Positions 532 through 10,808 of a stretch of DNA of 10,808 nt are shown one piece after another (the stretch's first letter is position 1; every line of letters begins with the position of its first letter). Where the stretch lies: UHGV virus genome UHGV-0129264; one strand, given 5' to 3'. This stretch comes from a virus. Made by a program: the position numbers and the translations under genes. Below the pieces are notes generated by a model. It ran no database searches, was not told the DNA's origin, and was given only the letters and a program-made list of their open reading frames with translations.

Positions 532-1794
532 ATGAGCACTTCAGCACAAAACCAATCAATCGAAAATGTATCTATCCCTGATGTCCTGAATGCCGGTATC
601 CCGGCCATTATCCAGAACATCCGGGCCGCGCAACGCCGCGTTAGTTGTGATGACCTCACAGCACGTTTTTTTGATAATGCGGTTCAGTCAGCGGAGATGC
701 TTCACGCACAGCTTATTGATGTTTATAACGCAGAAGCTGATAGCCATAACTCCCAGGTAGATGCAGCTGAAAATATGCAGTTGGATCTCGGTCTGAAGGG
801 TAAAGAAATTGAAGAGCTTCAGCTGCAAATTGAACATTTGAAACGCCAGCAACAGGACGCGATCGACGATGCGACGCATGACGCCAACCAGCGTGCTGAT
901 AATGCCGAACGTATAAGCATTGAGCTGGAAACAAAACTCAATGAAATGACCGCGATGGTTGAACTGCGGAACTCACAGATTTCAACGCTAAAATCTCAAT
1001 ATAAAGAGATCTGGAAACTTGATCCTTTTAACCTTGAGAAACGCTATAACAAAGCTAAAAGCGAGCGACAGGAACTGCGTAAGCAGGTCGCCGACCTTAA
1101 CCAACAGCTCAAAAAAACTATTAAAGATGCAAGCGAGGCGCGCGTGGCATTTGCTAATAAAAAAGCAGAGGTTACCGCGCTGGTTAATGAGAATGCCAAA
1201 TTTGCGACGCTCAAGAAGGAAATGTATGGCATTACTGAGCGCCGTTTCCCTGCAAGCAAACTTCATCCGACGTTAGGGCAAATCTCCTTCTTCCCGCGCC
1301 TCCTGGCTTATGGGATCTCATCGCCTAAAGAGTTCAATAACGAGCGTCCTTATATCGTTTCTAAGCTGGACTTTGCTTATCAGTTCTGCTGCGACATGGG
1401 CTATGCCATTGATATCCGAATCAACGAATGGTTGATGCCAAACTTCCAGCCGTTGGCAATTTTCCGCGAGTTTCAGCCGGAAGGTTGGGTAGAGTTCTTC
1501 CATGAATTGATCTGTAAAGAGATGGAAAGCCGCCGCCCGGAACTGGTCCGTCGTGTCGAGTGGGCGCAAGAGGTTATGTTAGCAGATGCAGAGCTGCCGT
1601 TCGAACCGGAATTCATTGATGATCTGGCAACTAAAGGGCTGCATACCCTGTTTGATGTGGTTACCCGCCGTCATGAGCAGTTGGTTGTCGAATTGGGTTT
1701 AGAGGAAACTGCGGCAAGAAGACTTCTCGATGTTTGCTATGCACGTAGCGATGCATGGGAAAAAGAGAACGGCGGCACTATTTACGTTCGCTGA
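532..1794 (+). CDS. Hypothetical 420-aa protein: N-terminal ~240 aa coiled-coil-like (heptad-rich, K/E/Q-rich), C-terminal globular domain of unknown function
   Basis: Long ORF with a clean frame; followed by a strong intrinsic terminator. No recognisable catalytic motif (no P-loop, no KxDG). Confidence 0.8.
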   Translation: MSTSAQNQSIENVSIPDVLNAGIPAIIQNIRAAQRRVSCDDLTARFFDNAVQSAEMLHAQLIDVYNAEADSHNSQVDAAENMQLDLGLKGKEIEELQLQIEHLKRQQQDAIDDATHDANQRADNAERISIELETKLNEMTAMVELRNSQISTLKSQYKEIWKLDPFNLEKRYNKAKSERQELRKQVADLNQQLKKTIKDASEARVAFANKKAEVTALVNENAKFATLKKEMYGITERRFPASKLHPTLGQISFFPRLLAYGISSPKEFNNERPYIVSKLDFAYQFCCDMGYAIDIRINEWLMPNFQPLAIFREFQPEGWVEFFHELICKEMESRRPELVRRVEWAQEVMLADAELPFEPEFIDDLATKGLHTLFDVVTRRHEQLVVELGLEETAARRLLDVCYARSDAWEKENGGTIYVR

Positions 1795-1866: not shown

Positions 1867-2373
1867 TTGAGTATTTTCAATAAACACGCACACCAGGAAC
1901 GTCCGTACATCGTCATAGTAGATATTGATGGGACGATATCAGAGGCAACGGAAGACAGGCTGCATTTACTTCCACCACCTGGCAAAGGTGCATTAACAGA
2001 GCACTGGAACGAGTTTAACCTTGCCTGTGACACTGATGCTCCCATCACTCCAGTTATTGATATGGTGCGCCAGTTGTCCGGCATTTACACCCTCTGGTTT
2101 GTAACCGGGCGCTGTGAGATAGCCAGGGATAAAACACGAGCCTGGTTGCGTAAGCACGTAACAAATGGGGCTGAGCCTTTGCTATCTATGCGTCCTGCCA
2201 CCGATGACAGAAATGACGGTCCAGCAAAGATTGATCTCCTTAAGAAAATTGGTCTAAGTAAAATCGCGTTCGCGCTGGAAGATAAGATTGAAGTGGCGCG
2301 TGTTTTCAGGAGGCACGGCGTGCTTACGTTAATGGTCAGAGAGTATGAAAACGCGCTTCTACATCAACAATAA
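1867..2373 (+). CDS. HAD-superfamily phosphatase-like protein (168 aa) with N-terminal DxDGT motif (IVIVDIDGTI); resembles small phage polynucleotide 3'-phosphatase / acid-phosphatase-like HAD proteins
   Basis: TTG start at 1867 preceded by GAGGAGGG (1856-1863); DxDG[TS] is the HAD motif I nucleophile signature. I recall a P1 gene named pap in this neighbourhood, but the symbol is not verified. Confidence 0.7.
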   Translation: MSIFNKHAHQERPYIVIVDIDGTISEATEDRLHLLPPPGKGALTEHWNEFNLACDTDAPITPVIDMVRQLSGIYTLWFVTGRCEIARDKTRAWLRKHVTNGAEPLLSMRPATDDRNDGPAKIDLLKKIGLSKIAFALEDKIEVARVFRRHGVLTLMVREYENALLHQQ

Positions 2374-2566: not shown

Positions 2567-3745
2567 ATGAAAGGCGAAGTGAAAGAGCGCGGCATGATTT
2601 TTAACGATGAGATGGTCCGGGCAATTCTTGGCGGGAATAAAACACAGACTCGCAGGATTGTTGAAGAAAAATTCTATGGATGGGCAGTGGCCGCAGAGTT
2701 GCTTGCCAAGCATTGTCCATATGGTCAACCGGGCGATCGTATTTGGGTTCGCGAAACCTACCGGGTACATGGCAAAGCGACGGACGTCGCAACGCTGGTT
2801 TATCGCGCAAGCGTGCGTAACTCCTGGACAGAACAAACGCACCGGGTTCCGGTCGAGGTTTGTAATAAACCAGTATCAGAAAAGTGGACGCCATCAATTC
2901 ACATGCCGCGCTGGGCATCGCGCATTCTTCTGGAAATTACCAACGTGCGCGTTGAGCGGTTGAACGATATCAGCGAATGCGATGCAAGGGCTGAGGGCGC
3001 ACCAACAGAATCGACCCTCATTGGCGATAAGCATTACCCAAGTTTCCGTAGCCTATGGAAATCAATTTATGGCGAAGATAGTTGGAACGCTAATCCTTGG
3101 GTGTGGGTAATACAGGCTGATGTCGCGCAGGCAATTGAAAAACTCAAACGGAAATTAGTGGAATGCAATCGCTATAACTACTGCGCAGATGCAGTTAAGG
3201 GCGTTGAGTATGCCTGCCACGCTGCCATGCTTCAGGGTAGCCAACCTGTAAGCCAAAGTAAGACATACAGGTTGGATTTTGGGCAATGGCTGGAACAGCA
3301 ACGCGGGAAAATCGATGTGGACTGTGGTTGTGTGTCCACTGAAACATTCATGCACTGGCTGCGGGTAGCTTACGAGGCTGGCAACTATCCGGATATTCCG
3401 GATAGTTCGGTGCCAGCGCCAGGAAAGGGCGTCACCGGTGAACGTATCCGCATTAAGCCGCATGTTTATCGCGAACTGGTTAACCGTCTCCACGATACAG
3501 CGATCAAGTGTGCTGGCACCCAGCAATTACGAGAAAGAATTAGCCGTGTTTTGGGCGACGTTATTACGCCATATCATCATAAACAAGCCGAGAAAAGCGG
3601 TCTGGAAAGGTGTCATCTTGAGGCAGCATTAAAGATTAAGCCGGGGCATACGCTTGGCATTATTGATGCACTGTTGGTTCATAAGATGGCCAGGGCTTTA
3701 TTGTCGTTGGTGGACGCTGGTGATACAAGCGAGGGTGAAGTATGA
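2567..3745 (+). CDS. 392-aa protein whose N-terminal ~190 aa resembles the ASCH/PUA-like domain common in prophage proteins; C-terminal half unknown
   Basis: ATG at 2567 after AAGGGGGA; N-terminal signature MIFNDEMVRAILGGNKTQTRR...GDRIWVRETY recalled as typical of ASCH-domain proteins (memory, not searched). Confidence 0.8.
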   Translation: MKGEVKERGMIFNDEMVRAILGGNKTQTRRIVEEKFYGWAVAAELLAKHCPYGQPGDRIWVRETYRVHGKATDVATLVYRASVRNSWTEQTHRVPVEVCNKPVSEKWTPSIHMPRWASRILLEITNVRVERLNDISECDARAEGAPTESTLIGDKHYPSFRSLWKSIYGEDSWNANPWVWVIQADVAQAIEKLKRKLVECNRYNYCADAVKGVEYACHAAMLQGSQPVSQSKTYRLDFGQWLEQQRGKIDVDCGCVSTETFMHWLRVAYEAGNYPDIPDSSVPAPGKGVTGERIRIKPHVYRELVNRLHDTAIKCAGTQQLRERISRVLGDVITPYHHKQAEKSGLERCHLEAALKIKPGHTLGIIDALLVHKMARALLSLVDAGDTSEGEV

Positions 3746-3843
3746 GAGTTGCAGATCACATCAAACACCTTGAAAGAATTATCGAAAACGGTGAACTCTT
3801 AAGAGATCAGATGAGACGCACGGCAGAGCCAGGGAGGCGATAA
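3742..3843 (+). CDS. 33-aa ORF overlapping the upstream stop (ATGA); possibly the N-terminal part of a frameshifted gene continuing in the 3873-4103 frame
   Basis: ATG 3742 overlaps TGA 3743-3745; the downstream frame is already open from 3795, so the two frames overlap by ~50 nt. Confidence 0.3.
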   Translation: MRVADHIKHLERIIENGELLRDQMRRTAEPGRR

Positions 3844-3872
3844 TCCGCAGTCAGGCTGGTAAATTAAAGCAA

Positions 3873-4103
3873 TTGTCAGAGATTAACACGCTATACAAGA
3901 ACAGACGTAACCGGGCGGTGATGCGGCTTCAGAAAGCACGTAATGAAATTAAATTGGTGGAGGCAAAACTGAAAAAACAGATCCAGCGTTACGATCAGCA
4001 AGATGCTTTTTATGCCGCCATCAAGGCGGCTGCTAATGAAATAGGCATCTGGAAGTTGCTGGTGGAGAAAGCAAAGACGAAGTTAAATGCCAACGAAAGC
4101 TGA
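3873..4103 (+). CDS. 76-aa K/E-rich helical small protein, TTG start (alternative ATG at 3921)
   Basis: ORF track; weak RBS; hairpin ATGTGC-N6-GCACAT at 4109-4126 just after the stop. Confidence 0.4.
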   Translation: MSEINTLYKNRRNRAVMRLQKARNEIKLVEAKLKKQIQRYDQQDAFYAAIKAAANEIGIWKLLVEKAKTKLNANES

Positions 4104-4159
4104 ACTACATGTGCCCACCAGCACATACAGAAAATGATTGTTTCCACATCAAAGAGATT

Positions 4160-4182
4160 TTAATGTTTCACTGAAACATTAA
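4160..4182 (-). terminator. Perfect 23-bp palindrome TTAATGTTTCA-C-TGAAACATTAA, likely terminator for the minus-strand small gene (or a protein-binding site)
   Basis: Overlaps the stop codon (4179-4181) of the 45-aa ORF; on the minus strand the hairpin is followed by TTAAAATCTCTTT. No U-tract on the plus strand. Confidence 0.45.
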
Positions 4183-4316
4183 GTAAGCCAGTGCATAATT
4201 CCATTTTTTACTGACCTTAAAAGCAAAATCAAAACGATGATGAGGATAATAGCCAGAATCTGGCTAATAATAGGCGCATCTAAAAATGCACTCAGGAACT
4301 GAAAAAAAGCGTTCAT
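4179..4316 (-). CDS. 45-aa hydrophobic single-helix peptide (MNAFFQFLSAFLDAPIISQILAIILIIVLILLLRSVKNGIMHWLT), small membrane protein
   Basis: Manual minus-strand translation; ATG at 4316-4314 preceded by AAGGAA (complement of 4324-4329) at 7-8 nt; stop embedded in palindromic terminator; not in the ORF track (<60 aa). Confidence 0.55.
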   Translation of the reverse strand: MNAFFQFLSAFLDAPIISQILAIILIIVLILLLRSVKNGIMHWLT

Positions 4317-5178
4317 TCAGGTGGTTCCTTGTCAAATGTAAAGGTGCACTTGCTCACGTTGACGTAGAAACCCAACCCCTATATAGTTGGATTCGGTGAA
4401 TGAAAGTCGTTAACGTGAGCTTACGGCACATGTTTTCGGAAAAACATCAGGGAACGGCTAATTCCTTGATGCGGGTGGGGTCTGTAATGCAGACCCTATC
4501 TATTAACGTCATGATTGCATCTCAAATTTTCTCCTTATCTTCAATTAATCTACATTCATTTCATCTGTTAGCCACCACAATATGTAGAAAATGGCCCTCT
4601 TGCAAGTGCATAACTTTGTGGATAACTCAGGAAGGAAAAAGTGGCTTTCGCGCACCTTCGGTCAGACAAGGTGTCCGGGAAAGTCAACGCAAAGAAAAAA
4701 ATTGTTAAAAATAACGTTTGTTGGAATTGTATATTTTTATCCCCTTCAATGGTTAGCATTCTATTAACATCTTTTTTTAGAGACAGAAAAACATATCGTA
4801 ACAACATATATACAGTATTAAGAGGCGAGTATTATCCTGCGGTGGGAATTCTGGGCGCTGTTAGATTCGACTTTCTCAGCGGGATTACATCGTCAACTTG
4901 CGACGTTGCCGTATGACTTTCGTGTAATAGGTGACAATGATGCGGCTAGTGAGTTACTTGTGAAGTTTTTCGGAAAAGGTTTTGTGGCCTCGGATCTTGA
5001 TGAGCTACAGCAACATGAAGTGTCTAATTTGATTTTTAGCCATAGCCAATAAGCCTCCCTCCTCCATCAAGGCCACAATTTGTGACCTTAAACAATTTGT
5101 TTTCTGCTTTTTCTTATTTGAGGAAATAACGTTGTTGACAGCTAATAGGCTCGTTGTTGTTATACATACCTGTATAGA

Positions 5179-5535
5179 TTATGACCGTAAATTATTAGCG
5201 GATTTTAAGCCATATTCACCGTTGTAGAAATTACTCATGTTCCATTCATTAGGAAGTTCTTTTCTGTCCAATGTATAGTGGCGCACGATATAACGATCTT
5301 CATCTTCTTCGATGGACAGGCGGACATAGCCAATGTGAATCACCGATACGGGCGGTGTTCGTATTGCATAGATGTCGCGGAGATATACCGGCAGCTCGAC
5401 AAATGCATCAGGTGCATCTGTGATGCTCGTTTTTTCACAGTATTCATATAACGCATCGTTGATATCGTTAAGAGATTCATGATCGTATATTTCCAGGTAA
5501 TTACCGCGATCGCGATGGTACTCGATTTTAGCCAT
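5179..5535 (-). CDS. Hypothetical 118-aa acidic protein, second gene of a minus-strand pair
   Basis: ATG at 5535-5533 abuts the stop of the upstream gene (minus strand reads TGAATG); AGGGGA 6 nt upstream, inside the upstream gene's 3' end. Confidence 0.7.
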   Translation of the reverse strand: MAKIEYHRDRGNYLEIYDHESLNDINDALYEYCEKTSITDAPDAFVELPVYLRDIYAIRTPPVSVIHIGYVRLSIEEDEDRYIVRHYTLDRKELPNEWNMSNFYNGEYGLKSANNLRS

Positions 5536-5943
5536 TCAAAATCCCCTGTTATCGTTTTGCATTTCTCTAATCCGGTTCAGAACTACTTCGTGCTGGACTT
5601 GGATAGCGGCTTTTTCGTTTTCAAGCCGGGCAATAGACATCTCTAATTCTTTGCTGTACCAGGCGAGCTGGGCCAGGTTCATCCGGTTGTGGTCGAGAGT
5701 TGGAGACACTTCGACGCGATCCCTTTCTTTCTGCTTTAATGAGAAGAGATTCATCTCATCCCTTGAGGAAAATTCAGCAACAATTTCTTGTTGATGATCC
5801 GGTCGCTGCGGCATCCTCGCCAGTATAAATGGCGGTTCTTTTGAAAACATGAATGTCGGTTCAGACCGTGTTTTTACCCAGCTTGCCTGCTGTCTTTCGG
5901 CAAGTTCACAGGCTTCATCATAGTTATCTGCCAAACAAAGCAC
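5536..5943 (-). CDS. Hypothetical 135-aa protein with C-terminal coiled-coil-like segment, first gene of the minus-strand pair; start uncertain
   Basis: GTG start at 5943 without a clear SD; internal ATGs at codons 32 and 44 also lack a well-spaced SD. Confidence 0.6.
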   Translation of the reverse strand: MLCLADNYDEACELAERQQASWVKTRSEPTFMFSKEPPFILARMPQRPDHQQEIVAEFSSRDEMNLFSLKQKERDRVEVSPTLDHNRMNLAQLAWYSKELEMSIARLENEKAAIQVQHEVVLNRIREMQNDNRGF

Positions 5944-6256
5944 GGATGGACGGTCTCACGCCCCACCATTCAGACAATAAACTACAATTTTCCCGTCAGG
6001 TTGTGTAATCCCATATGGATGGTCCCACTAGGCGTCCAGCTGAGCTTTAGAGCGTTTCTCGTTAGGAGTGCAGTCAAAATTTTTGGGCAATACAGGATCG
6101 AGAGGAATGCGATTAGGCATAGCTAATTCCTTATTAACTGATTGGCAACGAGGTTACGCTGATCCCGCGGTGATGAATAGTAGCAAAGCGCACAAAAATC
6201 ATCAGCGGTGGTTGATGTACATAACGCGTTTGCACCAAAGGTGCTTCTTTAATGTA

Positions 6257-6276
6257 TACTGTATAGATAAACAGTA
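6257..6276 (+). promoter_or_regulatory. LexA (SOS) box TACTGTATAGATAAACAGTA overlapping a -10 (TATACT 6255-6260) upstream of the UmuD'-like gene
   Basis: Perfect CTGT-N8-ACAG with AT-rich spacer; the only such site I found in the window; candidate -35 TTGCAC at 6230-6235. Confidence 0.85.
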
Positions 6277-6294
6277 TTTTTGAGGTAAAACGCT

Positions 6295-6684
6295 ATGGGT
6301 TTCCCTTCTCCTGCGGCGGATTATGTTGAAAGCCGAATTTCTCTTGATCAGCAGATAATTAGACATCCATCAGCAACCTACTTCATGCGGGCAGCTGATA
6401 GCCATCACCGTGAGGGAATATTGCAGGGTGCTTTGCTGGTGGTTGATTCTTCGCTTACTCCAGTTGATGGTTCGCTGCTTGTGTGCGCTATGGAGGGTGA
6501 ATATCGCATAAAGAGATACCGAAAGTATCCGCGCCAGCACCTGGAGGATTTAAGCACCGGGAAGAAAGAGGCGTTACCAGTGGATGACGATGGATGCACG
6601 GGGAGTAATGCTGTGTTTGGTGTGATCACTCATGTCATTAATGATGCCCGAAGTGGGGAATTTGATGATTGTCCGGTGATTTAA
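6295..6684 (+). CDS. humD: HumD, UmuD'-like S24 peptidase-fold protein lacking the N-terminal autocleavage segment (begins at the GFPSPAADYVE motif)
   Basis: Strong similarity to E. coli UmuD from the post-cleavage residue onward; Ser and Lys aligned with UmuD catalytic positions; GAGG RBS; LexA box upstream. Confidence 0.9.
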   Translation: MGFPSPAADYVESRISLDQQIIRHPSATYFMRAADSHHREGILQGALLVVDSSLTPVDGSLLVCAMEGEYRIKRYRKYPRQHLEDLSTGKKEALPVDDDGCTGSNAVFGVITHVINDARSGEFDDCPVI

Positions 6685-6726
6685 GCTGCAAAGTGCTGGT
6701 GCTTTATGCCTGTGAAGTTTATAATT

Positions 6727-6747
6727 GTGTACACATAACGAGTACAC
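6727..6747 (+). promoter_or_regulatory. Phd/Doc operator: perfect palindrome GTGTACAC (6727-6734) plus imperfect GAGTACAC (6740-6747), with -10 TATAAT at 6720-6725
   Basis: Two adjacent 8-bp palindromic sites immediately upstream of phd, matching the known autoregulated operator layout. Confidence 0.75.
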
Positions 6748-6756
6748 GAGGTGTTT

Positions 6757-6978
6757 ATGCAATCCATTAACTTCCGTACCGCGCGCGGCAACCTTTCTGA
6801 AGTGCTCAACAATGTTGAAGCCGGGGAAGAGGTTGAAATCACCCGCAGAGGCCGTGAGCCAGCAGTAATTGTCAGCAAGGCTACTTTCGAAGCCTACAAA
6901 AAAGCGGCGCTGGATGCTGAATTTGCATCCCTGTTTGACACCCTGGACTCCACCAACAAGGAACTGGTTAACCGATAA
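6757..6978 (+). CDS. phd: Phd antitoxin (prevent-host-death), 73 aa
   Basis: Sequence [41 protein letters not shown]... matches P1 Phd as I recall it; ATG at 6757 (track start 6751 is an upstream GTG); stop overlaps the doc start (TAATG). Confidence 0.95.
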
Positions 6979-7358
6979 TGAGGCATATATCACCGGAAGA
7001 ACTTATTGCGCTTCATGATGCGAATATAAACCGCTACGGCGGCCTGCCGGGAATGTCAGATCCGGGTAGGGCAGAGGCCATTATCGGGAGAGTTCAGGCC
7101 AGAGTCGCCTACGAAGAGATCACCGACCTTTTCGAAGTCTCCGCCACCTACCTGGTGGCTACAGCGAGAGGGCATATATTCAATGATGCCAATAAGCGTA
7201 CCGCGCTAAACAGTGCGCTGTTATTTCTACGCCGTAACGGGGTGCAGGTATTTGATTCACCTGAACTGGCAGACCTTACCGTAGGGGCTGCGACCGGAGA
7301 GATATCTGTATCTTCTGTCGCCGACACGTTACGTAGATTGTATGGTTCCGCGGAGTAG
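6978..7358 (+). CDS. doc: Doc toxin (death-on-curing, Fic-fold kinase), 126 aa
   Basis: [17 protein letters not shown]...[11 protein letters not shown]... matches P1 Doc as I recall it; translationally coupled to phd. Confidence 0.95.
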
Positions 7359-7362
7359 ATTA

Positions 7363-7542
7363 ATGGCACGTAAATACAACAAATTGTCCCGTGAAGCGTT
7401 AAAGATGCTTCTTGATGGCGTGAGTCGCCGCGAGGTAAAGCAATACCTGGTTGGTAAGCAAATTGGTGCTAGGACCGCTATTGCTGTGTTATGCCGTCAG
7501 GAAATGGTTGTGCTTAAACAGAGAATGCCGGGCAGCAGATAA
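7363..7542 (+). CDS. Small 59-aa basic protein with probable helix-turn-helix (post-doc small gene, possibly pdcA)
   Basis: ATG at 7363 with GGAG (7352-7355) 7 nt upstream, 5 nt after the doc stop; the track's 7342 start lies inside doc and lacks an SD. Confidence 0.5.
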   Translation: MARKYNKLSREALKMLLDGVSRREVKQYLVGKQIGARTAIAVLCRQEMVVLKQRMPGSR

Positions 7543-7569
7543 AGCCCAATCAGTGATGAAAGGTGTGAT

Positions 7570-8613
7570 GTGAAAGCCGTAATTACTCCCTTTGTACAAA
7601 AAGAGCTTGGCGTCGCCACATTCAAAGTGGATCAGGAAGTCAGAAAGCTGGTGGAGGCTGGCCGTAAATTTATTATGGAGCCGGTGCCGCGTGAGTTAAT
7701 CGAGCACATGGACGACGGCCTCGTTGTTTCCGAGCAAACTATGGCAACAAATGAGGCGTTGCAGCCGTTTTTTAACAGCGATGAACTGTTTCGCCGTATT
7801 GGTGGAATTGACGCGCTGGTGGCGTGGTTGCGCAGGAAAGAGGGGCAATGCCAGGCCGCAGATCGTAGCTGGTGTGACAACCATATTGTCCACGCAGAAC
7901 GAGACAATAGCGCGGTGTTGTTGTGCTGGCATCACGATAACCATTACCGGATGCGTGGTTTTAATGAGCTGAAAGAAACGCTGCATAATAATCGCGTTAA
8001 CTGGATACTGGATGTCGCCCGTCAGGAAATGGGGCTTTCAGATGGCCATGATCTAAGTATTCAGGAACTGTGCTGGTGGGCTTTCATGCGCAACATGATG
8101 CACCTGATGCCGGAAGAAGTTTGCCGTATATCAATAAATAAGATGAAAGCCGCAACGCAGGATAGCGGACCTCTGAAAGAGGCGGATATTCGCCCGTATG
8201 ACGATCGCGCTACAGCATATGTTCAGATGATGGAAGAACGCGCCGCGCCGATGCGTGCAAAAGTATGCCCTGTGGATGTTGACTCCGACCCTGGCATGGC
8301 GCATTTCAAAATACCAAAACTGCAATCGCTAAAATTACCTGAGTACATGGACTTTGTTGCTTCCCGTCCATGCTGTGGGTGTGGAGCGGCGGGAGCTGGC
8401 GCTCACATTACGCCTTATATCGTTCGTCATAGTCGATTATGCGCGCATGACATTTACGCAATTCCTCTGTGCCAGTCATGCCAGCGTGATATTGAGCGTG
8501 ACCGCGATAATTGGGAGAAGACGCACGGTAGGCTGGCGATGCATCAACGATTGTTCTTTGATTACGCGCTTGGAGTCGGCGCTATCACAAGTCACTCGTC
8601 GAGCGTTATATAA
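7570..8613 (+). CDS. pdcB: PdcB-like 347-aa protein (post-doc), Cys/His-rich with a possible HNH-like motif ([24 protein letters not shown]) and a C-terminal Cys cluster
   Basis: GTG start at 7570 with AAGGTG SD; position after phd-doc as in P1; motif reading is by eye only. Confidence 0.75.
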
Positions 8614-8614
8614 A

Positions 8615-8656
8615 ATTGCTCTAATGTATTGCTATTTCTTTAATCGAGGGTATTAT
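8615..8656 (+). promoter_or_regulatory. C1 operator-like site ATTGCTCTAATGTATTG (8615-8631) overlapping -35 TTGCTA (8629-8634), 16-bp spacer, -10 TATTAT (8651-8656): C1-repressed promoter for lpa
   Basis: 14/17 to operator consensus; promoter hexamers and spacing read from sequence; consistent with known C1 control of the late-promoter activator gene. Confidence 0.6.
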
Positions 8657-8701
8657 ATTCCACGTTGATTAGTTGACATGGGCTAATCAGTAGGTGACAG
8701 G

Positions 8702-9154
8702 ATGTTACTTAACTGGCAGGGACGCCACTTCATGGAAATAAATCACTCACGAATAACATCGTACGAGATTGCGGATTACATGATCCGCACTAAATCTCTT
8801 CTATCAGCGAAAGAACTCGCAGCAATTCTTGAAAAGGAATACCCGCATCTGGATGTCGATAAGCGCGATGTTTATCTGCGCTTAAAGGCTATCGCTGTGT
8901 CTAAGTATTCGTCTGTTTTGATTGATGACAGTACACGCCCACGTAGATTTCAGATCCACTCTCTGAATCCTGAATTCTTTCGCCGTAGCCGCGCTCCGCG
9001 CCGGTTTGATGAAAAACTCCAGAACGAACTCTATATGACGCAGGACGAAAAGGAACGCCGGGAGCACCAGCCTTGGGTAATGGCGCGTCAACTTTTCAAT
9101 AAGGTGGCCCGTCAGCACCGTCATTACGGTAATGCCACATCCGCACGTATCTGA
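8702..9154 (+). CDS. lpa: Lpa, late promoter activator (gene 10 product)
   Basis: Position between pdcB and pacA with a C1-controlled promoter upstream; AGGTGA SD before ATG 8702; identity rests on synteny (sequence not recalled). Confidence 0.7.
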   Translation: MLLNWQGRHFMEINHSRITSYEIADYMIRTKSLLSAKELAAILEKEYPHLDVDKRDVYLRLKAIAVSKYSSVLIDDSTRPRRFQIHSLNPEFFRRSRAPRRFDEKLQNELYMTQDEKERREHQPWVMARQLFNKVARQHRHYGNATSARI

Positions 9155-9239
9155 TTGATTGCTTGCTCGTTCCGGGCCTTTTGACATGTGACTTTCGTTA
9201 CCCTCGCGTCAAAAAGAGTTTTTACGAAAGGAAGCATAA

Positions 9240-10025
9240 GTGACCTGGGACGATCACAAGAAGAATTTTGCTCGCCTGGCGCGAGATGGTGGTTACACCA
9301 TCGCACAGTATGCCGCCGAGTTTAATCTTAACCCTAATACCGCACGTCGTTATCTCCGTGCCTTCAAAGAAGACACCAGGACTGCGGACAGCCGCAAGCC
9401 AAATAAGCCAGTCAGGAAGCCACTAAAAAGCATGATCATTGATCACTCTAATGATCAACATGCAGGTGATCATATTGCGGCTGAAATAGCGGAAAAACAG
9501 AGAGTTAATGCCGTTATCAGTGCCGCAGTCGAGAATGCGAAGCGCCAAAATAAGCGCATAAATGATCGTTCAGATGATCATGACGTGATCACCCGCGCCC
9601 ACCGGACCTTACGTGATCGCCTGGAACGCGACACCCTGGATGATGATGGTGAACGCTTTGAATTCGAAGCTGGCGATTACCTGATAGATAACGTTGAAGC
9701 GCGGAAGGCCGCGCGCGCTATGTTGCGTCGGTCCGGGGCCGATGTTCTGGAAACCACTCTTCTTGAAAAGTCTCTTTCTCATCTCCTTATGCTGGAGAAC
9801 GCCAGGGATACGTGTATTCGCCTGGTGCAGGAAATGCGCGATCAGCAAAAAGACGATGATGAAGGTACTCCGCCTGAATACCGTATCGCGAGCATGCTAA
9901 ACAGCTGTTCCGCGCAGATAAGCAGCCTGATCAACACCATTTACAGCATCCGGAATAACTATCGAAAAGAAAGCCGGGAGGCGGAAAAGGGGTCCGCTTG
10001 GAAAACGGAAAATATCCTACGCTAA
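9240..10025 (+). pseudogene. pacA: pacA (pacase/terminase small subunit) truncated by transposon insertion: about 249 native codons then 12 codons read from the transposon IR before a stop
   Basis: GTG start 9240 with AGGAAG SD; N-terminus [10 protein letters not shown] matches P1 PacA as I recall; the reading frame runs into the 38-bp IR at 9989 and ends at TAA 10023-10025; native PacA is about 400 aa. Confidence 0.85.
9433..9591 (+). repeat. P1 pac site: four TGATCA hexamers (9433-9438, 9440-9445, 9452-9457, 9467-9472) and three TGATCR hexamers (9563-9568, 9575-9580, 9586-9591) flanking the cleavage region
   Basis: The 4+3 arrangement of Dam-site-containing hexamers inside the 5' part of pacA matches the described pac site architecture. 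Confidence 0.9.
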
Positions 10026-10026
10026 G
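9989..10026. repeat. 38-bp terminal inverted repeat of a Tn3-family transposon (GGGGTCCGCTTGGAAAACGGAAAATATCCTACGCTAAG), Tn21/Tn501-subgroup-like
   Basis: GGGG terminus, internal GAAAACGGAAAAT and terminal ACGCTAAG match Tn21-type IRs from memory; the tnpA stop lies inside the IR, as is typical. Confidence 0.85.
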
Positions 10027-10808
10027 CCTGTTTTTTGTACAGGCTGCTGTCTACTGAGCGTAACGAACGGTATTTCCCCTGTCCCAGCTTGAGGTTTGTT
10101 CGCCAGACGTAATCTCCGCTCAGGTTGATGTGTTCCCATCCCAGAGGGGACAGATGAGAAATCAGCTGGTCATTGATTAGGATCCCTTTTCGCTTCAGAG
10201 AATCTATGGCTCTTTCTATATATACCGTATTCCAGAGTGAGATCGCCGCAGTCAGCAAGGTGAGCCCACTTGCCCGATAGCTCTGGTATTCCAGTCCCCG
10301 ATCTCTGATTTCACCCAGCCGGTGCATAAAGACTGCGCGCGCAAGGGCATTCCGCGCCTCACCTTTATTCAGCCCTGCCTGTACGCGTCGACGCAGGGAA
10401 GGATCCCGGAACCAGTCCAGCATAAACAATGACCTTTCGATGCGACCAATTTCCCTTAGCGCTTTTGCCAGACCATTTTGTTTCGGATAGCTGGCCAGCT
10501 TTTTCATCATCAGTGATGCTGTTACCGTTCCCTGTTTTATAGAGTTCGCCAGACGTAGCACCTCACTCCAGTGGGTTTCAATGTCCTTTAGATTCAGGCT
10601 GGTTGTGGAAATAATTGACTGAAGCCCCGGATACAACTCGGATTTTCCATGAATAAACAATCTCTTGTCATGAAGATCCCGGATCCTTGGCGCAAAAGCG
10701 AATCCGAGCAGATGCATCAACGCGAAAACATGATCAGTGAAACCTGCGGTGTCGGTGTAATGCTCTGTAATCTCCAGCTCGCTTTCGTGATACAGCAAGC
10801 CGTCAAGT
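10022..10808 (-). CDS. tnpA: Tn3-family transposase TnpA, C-terminal ~260 aa (partial; N-terminus beyond window end)
   Basis: C-terminal region ([21 protein letters not shown]...[13 protein letters not shown]) is typical of Tn3-family DDE transposases; ORF is open to the window edge. Confidence 0.9.

Follow-up and report, generated by a model that had tools for sequence, protein, structure and literature searches.

A probable P7-type allele of the hot-lxr region in a P1-like phage-plasmid combines an inactivated lxr with an intact upf93.6

Two small minus-strand open reading frames (ORFs), which meet stop to start, lie to the left of humD in a 10,808-nt stretch of the virus genome UHGV-0129264 (hereafter the window), and their arrangement raises the question of whether they constitute a functional module. 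A sequence-only reading of the region under study (4104-6290) had described a translationally coupled gene pair in an AT-rich, variable spot of a phage-plasmid, and had taken this for the classic layout of a toxin-antitoxin, abortive-infection or anti-defence cassette. Judged by its ORF map and database matches, the window is P1/P7-like phage-plasmid DNA, and the region is probably the P7-type allele of the hot-lxr variable region known from such elements. Our analyses show that lxr is inactivated in this lineage and that upf93.6 is intact; most likely, the two are independent and dispensable accessory genes.

Across 4104-6290 the window shares 99.0% identity with the P7 reference genome (AF503408), which is classified under Punavirus P1, if the IS903 of P7 is set aside; identity to SJ46 and other Punavirus records is 98.7-98.9%, and it rises to 100% in over 20 plasmids from E. 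coli, Salmonella and Shigella. Both ORFs are annotated as genes in P7, namely upf93.6 (357 nt) and upf94.2 (585 nt), and another record gives the latter the product name of P1 lxr, 'LexA regulated function'. The sequence-only reading had named collinearity and near-identity with a reference in which both proteins are annotated as the outcome that would speak against its proposal, and P7 presents essentially that picture. Hence, the arrangement was already known, being annotated in P7 with the function of its genes unassigned, and a literature search found no functional study of upf93.6, upf94.2 or Lxr. The same reading was right to suspect a variable spot: hot-lxr has been documented among the variable, GC-poor regions of P1-like elements (region 8/H; PMC9603915) and as RD-5, with 'closer identity to P7' (PMC6906374).

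Alignment to P1 (AF234172) gives two blocks, at 3370-4724 (94% identity) and 5553-9989 (97%), with breakpoints at 4724 and 5553, whereas alignment to P7 is unbroken except where IS903 has been inserted in P7. Between the breakpoints stands a segment of 39.9% GC that contains a primase-gene remnant, upf93.6 and the last 17 nt of lxr. The corresponding place in P1, bounded by the upfO region and the 3' end of lxr, is taken by the LPhot-hot cassette, which is on the plus strand and convergent with lxr, as is the primase remnant here. The two contents have no sequence similarity: Hot is homologous to the theta subunit of DNA polymerase III, and the slot here is filled by a primase fragment and upf93.6. 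The reported absence of any Hot- or HolE-like ORF, in any frame, was borne out by tblastn with P1 Hot, the best match of which in the window (E = 5.8) fell outside the region, and there is no HolE-like ORF between the upfO region and lxr. The low GC content is also real (39.2% in 4104-5178, against 47.2% for the whole window). The suggestion that this DNA replaces hot-lxr holds in one half only: alignment to P1 and P7 shows that LPhot-hot has been replaced, and that lxr is retained as a pseudogene.

The lxr frame agrees in locus, orientation and its 585-nt length with P1 lxr and P7 upf94.2 (phrog_6164), the P1 protein having approximately 90% identity, and, as in those genomes, it diverges from humD with a LexA box between; it is from this neighbouring box alone that the family takes its name. 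It differs from them in two premature stop codons, codon 31 having changed from TGG to TAG (W31*; codon 6028-6030, position 6029) and codon 55 from TGG to TGA (W55*; codon 5956-5958, position 5956), and lxr in this lineage is a pseudogene inactivated by these two nonsense mutations. Among 65 aligned homologues, W31 is invariant and W55 nearly so. Further changes are V38I and E131K, and there are 8 nucleotide differences from P7 upf94.2 over 585 nt. All four lineage-specific changes in lxr (at 5956, 6009, 6029 and 5730) are G to A on the coding strand, or C to T on the plus strand. Three of the five differences from the nearest allele fall within lxr, which by our own binomial estimate is not a significant excess over the flanks (p ~0.15). 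An AAGGA Shine-Dalgarno sequence stands 7 nt ahead of the ATG at 6120, and the protein, when repaired, matches phrog_6164 with E 3.5e-135.

Two minus-strand ORFs of 135 and 118 aa are present as the sequence-only reading had stated, but the former is the tail of lxr: it is what remains open after the second stop, entered at a GTG (Val60) that has no Shine-Dalgarno sequence before it, and so the pair consists of one pseudogene and one intact gene, lying mostly in different segments, rather than of a two-gene cassette. The junction itself is as described, reading ...AGGGGATTTTGAATG with the TGA stop touching the ATG, and the strong Shine-Dalgarno sequence inside the upstream ORF is there (AGGGGA, 6 nt upstream of the second start). 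It might be supposed that the 135-aa ORF encodes a functional, N-terminally truncated Lxr, comprising the second beta3-alpha unit and the coiled coil and still working with Upf93.6, given that the frame is open for 135 codons from the GTG, that PGAP calls it a gene (a hypothetical protein) and that the allele is common, occurring on 375 contigs. Against this, the GTG has no ribosome-binding site and falls inside strand E59-64 of the N-terminal domain in the AF2 model of Lxr, the product would have lost the invariant residues of the stretch I5-R57, among them the WWDxP and CLNGG/DR motifs, and since the W31* intermediate the changes have been non-synonymous (V38I upstream of the ORF, E131K inside it), with no synonymous change. 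We consider a working truncated Lxr highly improbable, and regard the ORF as a remnant.

The order of events follows from plasmid pEC21Z048-103K, the lxr of which is an intermediate allele with W31* only, so that W31* came before W55*. Alleles were counted in PLSDB with a 96-bp probe spanning both stops. P7-type lxr is found in 89 plasmids, 23 of which have the exact double-stop allele; a further seven, which have no annotated coding sequence, display the two mismatches characteristic of the W31*-only allele (one of these seven was verified), and the remaining 59 are more divergent, mostly with a coding sequence annotated across the probe among the matches listed. Broken lxr therefore appears to be present in about one third of P7-type plasmids in PLSDB, as the double-stop allele or its W31*-only precursor. 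Errors of assembly are an unlikely source of the stop codons, since 23 independent complete plasmids share them without difference. For the 135-aa remnant 375 contigs are on record, compared to 105 for the commonest intact 194-aa form (40 cluster members read), and other truncated variants exist (P0039, P0056). In P1, lxr was non-essential for lytic growth in a CRISPRi screen (PMC10695390). Phage PhiR41_1 retains a 29-bp relic (L031, 4279-4307) of the junction between the lxr 3' end and upf93.6, equivalent to window 5543-5571, between its primase-like gene and the humD control region; this looks like a deletion scar in a phage that once had lxr.

Natural genotypes bear directly on whether the two genes need one another. 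The two stand side by side in P7-type elements, as they do in a pair of diverged ones, L017 and L018/L019, where an lxr of 189-190 aa is followed by a upf93.6 homologue of 57-58% identity after a spacer of approximately 15 nt, so that the genes do not abut; L017 is P1-like, with lpa and pdcB present and humD not beside lxr, and L018/L019 is a Rep3 element. Long-form lxr occurs without upf93.6 in P1 and in an Enterobacter plasmid (L036), where it adjoins an H-NS gene. In plasmids from Pseudomonas/Xanthomonas, Klebsiella, Salmonella and environmental samples the short Lxr N-domain is found by itself, and in the contexts read a upf93.6 relative never stands beside it. Conversely, Upf93.6 relatives follow other, unrelated genes in five other contexts, a profile check of L021 and L022 found no Lxr-like neighbour of such relatives, and in the window lineage (23 PLSDB plasmids) upf93.6 is intact where lxr is destroyed. 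Each gene is thus kept without a functional copy of the other, so that neither can encode an obligate antidote to its neighbour, and this is the core argument against a toxin-antitoxin module, in which one product would be toxic and the other would neutralise it, stabilising the plasmid or killing infected cells.

The layout that had suggested such a module is present in so far as there are two small, adjacent and co-oriented genes, one of them a pseudogene, but the partners are not kept together; P1 and L036 have lxr only and this lineage has upf93.6 only. Neither product resembles a known toxin or antitoxin family or fold. PADLOC likewise found no defence-system match, its profiles (PADLOC-DB) giving no hit at E <= 1 to Lxr, Upf93.6 or a 45-aa ORF nearby. 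A bona fide type II toxin-antitoxin module, P1 phd-doc, lies 460 bp to the right in the window and likewise comprises two small genes on one strand with a common boundary. Its products, however, belong to recognised families, and phd and doc are among the most conserved P1 genes (PMC9603915), whereas neither lxr nor upf93.6 falls in a family of toxins or antitoxins, and each is found where the other is missing. A toxin-antitoxin or abortive-infection pair is very unlikely here, and two independent, dispensable accessory genes remain the most likely reading.

The intact gene, upf93.6, differs from its P7 counterpart (phrog_5797; 118 aa, in the same place directly after lxr) by a single residue, L48M; only in P7 does IS903 follow approximately 250 bp downstream. 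The protein matches phrog_5797 with E 3.8e-77 over positions 1-118 of 118, and its exact sequence is found on at least 1000 contigs. Compared with homologues of 57% identity, the ratio of non-synonymous to synonymous substitution (dN/dS) is 0.08-0.11, which denotes purifying selection. Upf93.6 has an isoelectric point (pI) of 4.8, and the family (24 members) is acidic throughout, with pI 4.5-5.6 and a net charge of -5 to -12. An AF2 model built on 24 sequences (pLDDT 77) predicts a beta-beta-alpha-beta-beta-beta topology, for which a fold search of PDB and BFVD found no match. A profile search of 1.8 billion representatives returned approximately 25 small relatives; long proteins with 3-19 matched stretches also appeared, and these were rejected as repeat artefacts, being BspA-type leucine-rich-repeat proteins.

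What Upf93.6 does can be suggested only tentatively: we see it as an independent, mobile, small acidic protein, and binding to and modulating a host factor or a defence component is our best guess for its role, on which we place limited confidence. A more specific proposal is anti-defence or host takeover, in which Upf93.6, together with Lxr where intact, would be a small acidic protein that inhibits a host factor of defence or repair and is produced on derepression of the element. The consistent acidity of the family, its small size, mobility and position in accessory-gene arrays of plasmids and phages would suit such a role, as would purifying selection in a known hypervariable spot, and one relative lies between Mrr-like, HEPN-like and PLD-like genes. 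These traits are nevertheless permissive rather than diagnostic, acidity alone being weak evidence; the neighbours are heterogeneous, lxr is dispensable and often broken, and the PADLOC, PDB and BFVD searches revealed no similarity of Upf93.6 to a known anti-defence protein or fold. We therefore think this specific form doubtful, and prefer the broader reading of Upf93.6 as a separate accessory protein.

As to expression, lxr and upf93.6 may form a leftward transcription unit that starts from the divergent lxr/humD control region, and, with a LexA box there, the unit would be induced by DNA damage. The P1 record annotates the LexA site as regulating both lxr and humD. Alleles of the box differ at two internal spacer positions (...TATAGATAAA... 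in the window and ...TATAAATGAA... in P7 and SJ46) and all keep CTGT-N8-ACAG; in pEC21Z048-103K, the nearest relative, the difference is at 6258, immediately beyond the CTGT. Translation of upf93.6 would proceed from its own AGGGGA ribosome-binding site, and its expression in this lineage is perhaps lowered by polarity from the upstream stop codons. A further proposal is that the whole unit is decaying here, with upf93.6 silenced by polarity and still present only because its loss has not yet had time to occur. In its favour, untranslated mRNA beyond the two nonsense codons would be exposed to Rho, lxr contains no promoter-like site, as far as the scan could tell, from which upf93.6 might be transcribed, the double-stop plasmids do not differ over the 2.2 kb and so represent a young lineage, and PhiR41_1 has lost both genes. 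On the other hand, upf93.6 has suffered no damaging change, occurs as the same protein on its many contigs and has a strong Shine-Dalgarno sequence of its own; decay of the unit seems to us improbable. A scan for promoters and terminators found sites no more frequently than in shuffled sequence, and repeats and RNA folding in the convergent intergenic region were nothing beyond chance (z = -1.5).

Lxr is the better represented of the two families. Its AF2 model (65 sequences, pLDDT 88) comprises an ordered N-terminal arm, beta-beta-beta-alpha units at 36-85 and 89-130, and a long C-terminal helix at 149-191. Homologues of the first ~125 residues are proteins of 131-135 aa with 50-60% identity, carried by plasmids of Salmonella, Klebsiella, Pseudomonas, Xanthomonas, Burkholderia and Bradyrhizobium; P1-like elements would, on the model, have added a C-terminal coiled coil to this conserved 125-aa N-domain of two beta3-alpha units. 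The family has 26 invariant positions, including WWDxP, CLNGG.DR and QRPD, and among intact homologues lxr is under purifying selection (dN/dS 0.08-0.24). Searches of Lxr, Upf93.6 and the small ORFs against Pfam, NCBIfam, PADLOC and PHROGs matched only unnamed PHROGs, no member of either alignment matched Pfam, and PDB sequence searches with single proteins and profiles of Lxr and Upf93.6 gave nothing below E 0.1, in agreement with the sequence-only reading, which had recognised no motif in either product. Kinship to small beta3-alpha domains (HicB N-terminal, AP2/integrase arm-binding, dsRBD-like) was considered and rejected, the scores being at noise level with 7-16% identity and no conserved functional residues in common; the resemblance is one of shape only. 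The invariant QLDAWW motif of Lxr was considered as a beta-clamp-binding motif; it sits in a confidently folded helix of the model, and the idea is kept as a speculative lead.

In four independent contexts the genes adjoining Lxr homologues are concerned with DNA metabolism: P1 has hot and humD there; a Klebsiella element has gp32, RecA, a 5'-3' exonuclease and Pol III alpha; in Salmonella the neighbours are UmuC-like and Tus genes; and in Pseudomonas they are RepA and a resolvase gene that overlaps the stop codon of the homologue. Many homologues are called 'DNA-binding protein' by PGAP. As the N-domain recurs beside genes of replication, repair and recombination, our leading guess, a tentative one, is that Lxr is a dispensable accessory protein that binds DNA or a replication or repair protein. 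In Pseudomonas/Xanthomonas-type plasmids (L005-L008) positions 5790-7040 hold a three-gene unit of a 66-67-aa ORF, a 135-aa Lxr-domain gene and a serine resolvase, with a 4-nt overlap between the resolvase start and the Lxr-domain stop; beside the unit lie RepA and a Fic/VbhA pair.

Several observations weigh against the interpretation offered here, that is, independent genes in a LexA-controlled unit with Lxr acting in DNA metabolism. LexA control of lxr is only weakly indicated, at the level of annotation, and the box adjoins humD (19 bp upstream of its ATG) and lies 137 bp upstream of the lxr ATG. A consensus promoter scan revealed no clear sigma-70-like promoter for lxr, and no LexA box was found upstream of lxr or upf93.6 homologues at 14 other loci. 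Adjacency of lxr and upf93.6 in three diverged lineages leaves room for a functional link. The Lxr N-domain is acidic (pI ~5), which fits poorly with the PGAP label, and the themes of the neighbourhoods are anecdotal, with 4-5 contexts each.

The remaining features of the region and its surroundings are collected in Table 1.

Table 1. Coordinates of features in the region 4104-6290 and elsewhere in the window.
Feature	Position	Strand	Remarks
pmgS	532-1794		
pap	1867-2373		
392-aa gene	2567-3745		the 'ASCH-like operon' of the sequence-only reading
pmgV-like gene	3873-4103		
AT-rich spacer	4104-4724		homologous to the P1 upfM-upfN-upfO region, ~94% identity to AF234172; backbone, outside the swapped segment
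45-aa ORF	4179-4316	-	strongly hydrophobic, MNAFFQFLSAFLDAPIISQILAIILIIVLILLLRSVKNGIMHWLT; identical in P7, 2 aa changes in P1
DnaA box	4617-4625	-	TGTGGATAA (TTATCCACA on the other strand); perfect consensus by pattern search; P1 record predicts DnaA boxes at the equivalent place
P7-type segment	4725-5552		828 bp, where P1 has the 306-bp LPhot-hot cassette; from alignments to P1 and P7
Primase-like gene, 3' remnant	4841-5052	+	last ~70 codons; no ATG or GTG start; ORF listing starts at TTG 4906
upf93.6	5179-5535	-	intact; 118 aa, small acidic alpha/beta protein
135-aa ORF	5536-5943	-	open stretch after second lxr stop, from GTG = Val60
lxr (P7 upf94.2) pseudogene	5536-6120	-	194-codon frame, length as P7 gene; two premature stops
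LexA box	6257-6276		TACTGTATAGATAAACAGTA; divergent lxr/humD control region; matches CTGT-N8-ACAG; annotated LexA site in P1 and P7 records
humD (UmuD'-like)	6295-6684	+	divergent neighbour anchoring the region; elsewhere annotated S24 family peptidase
phd	6751-6978		
doc	6978-7358		
pdcB	7570-8613		
lpa	8702-9154		

The AT-rich stretch from 4104 to 5178 had been described as about 1 kb without a convincing ORF, which is correct for the P1 ORFs upfN and upfO, since these are not conserved as proteins, and overlooks the 45-aa ORF and the primase remnant. On the plus strand at 4415-4722, the upfN of P1 is interrupted by an in-frame stop and changes frame, and upfO has 59% protein identity despite approximately 94% DNA identity; on this comparison, neither is probably a gene. 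The 45-aa ORF, which may encode a small membrane protein, is annotated only in SJ46 (J46_0085); it has an AGGA approximately 10 nt upstream of its ATG, and its 5' end overlaps the annotated upfM of P1 on the opposite strand. Besides the DnaA box in Table 1, a box with one mismatch lies at 4241.

The primase remnant matches phrog_17952 'DNA primase' with E 2.4e-26 and has 90% DNA identity to the 3' end of an intact PhiR41_1 gene of 174 aa (L031, 3689-4213), which lies directly upstream of humD and matches phrog_849 'DNA primase' with E 9.5e-54; the complete catalytic-core region of that 174-aa protein is not present at 4841-5052. Jersey-like/Kagunavirus phages and Erwinia jumbo phages have small primase-like homologues with approximately 45% identity. 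The IS903 of P7 lies inside the primase remnant, and the P7 alignment blocks overlap at window 4916-4924, presumably the target duplication. An Rfam search of the whole window returned a single sub-threshold GcvB match outside the region, which was rejected. Towards the right end of the window, pacA (9240-10025, plus strand) is interrupted, for after 261 codons it runs into the end of a Tn3-family transposase gene (10022-10798, minus strand), so the packaging gene is disrupted, at least within the window.

A wider synthesis, which we put forward as a long shot, would have the Lxr N-domain represent a large plasmid and phage-plasmid family that acts on a universally conserved component of host replication or repair, and Upf93.6 a separate, new family of acidic inhibitors; the repeated breakage of lxr in a successful and widely sampled P1-like lineage of E. 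coli, Salmonella and Shigella would, in that case, be due not to drift but to selection against Lxr while the element is a plasmid. At a practical level, databases carry a pseudogene fragment, through PGAP, as a normal hypothetical protein. The double-stop allele and its W31* precursor, which together account for about a third of P7-type plasmids in PLSDB, amount to a natural knockout series for the study of lxr. Lxr itself represents a highly conserved and widespread family of plasmid proteins that has no Pfam model and is found repeatedly beside genes of DNA metabolism.

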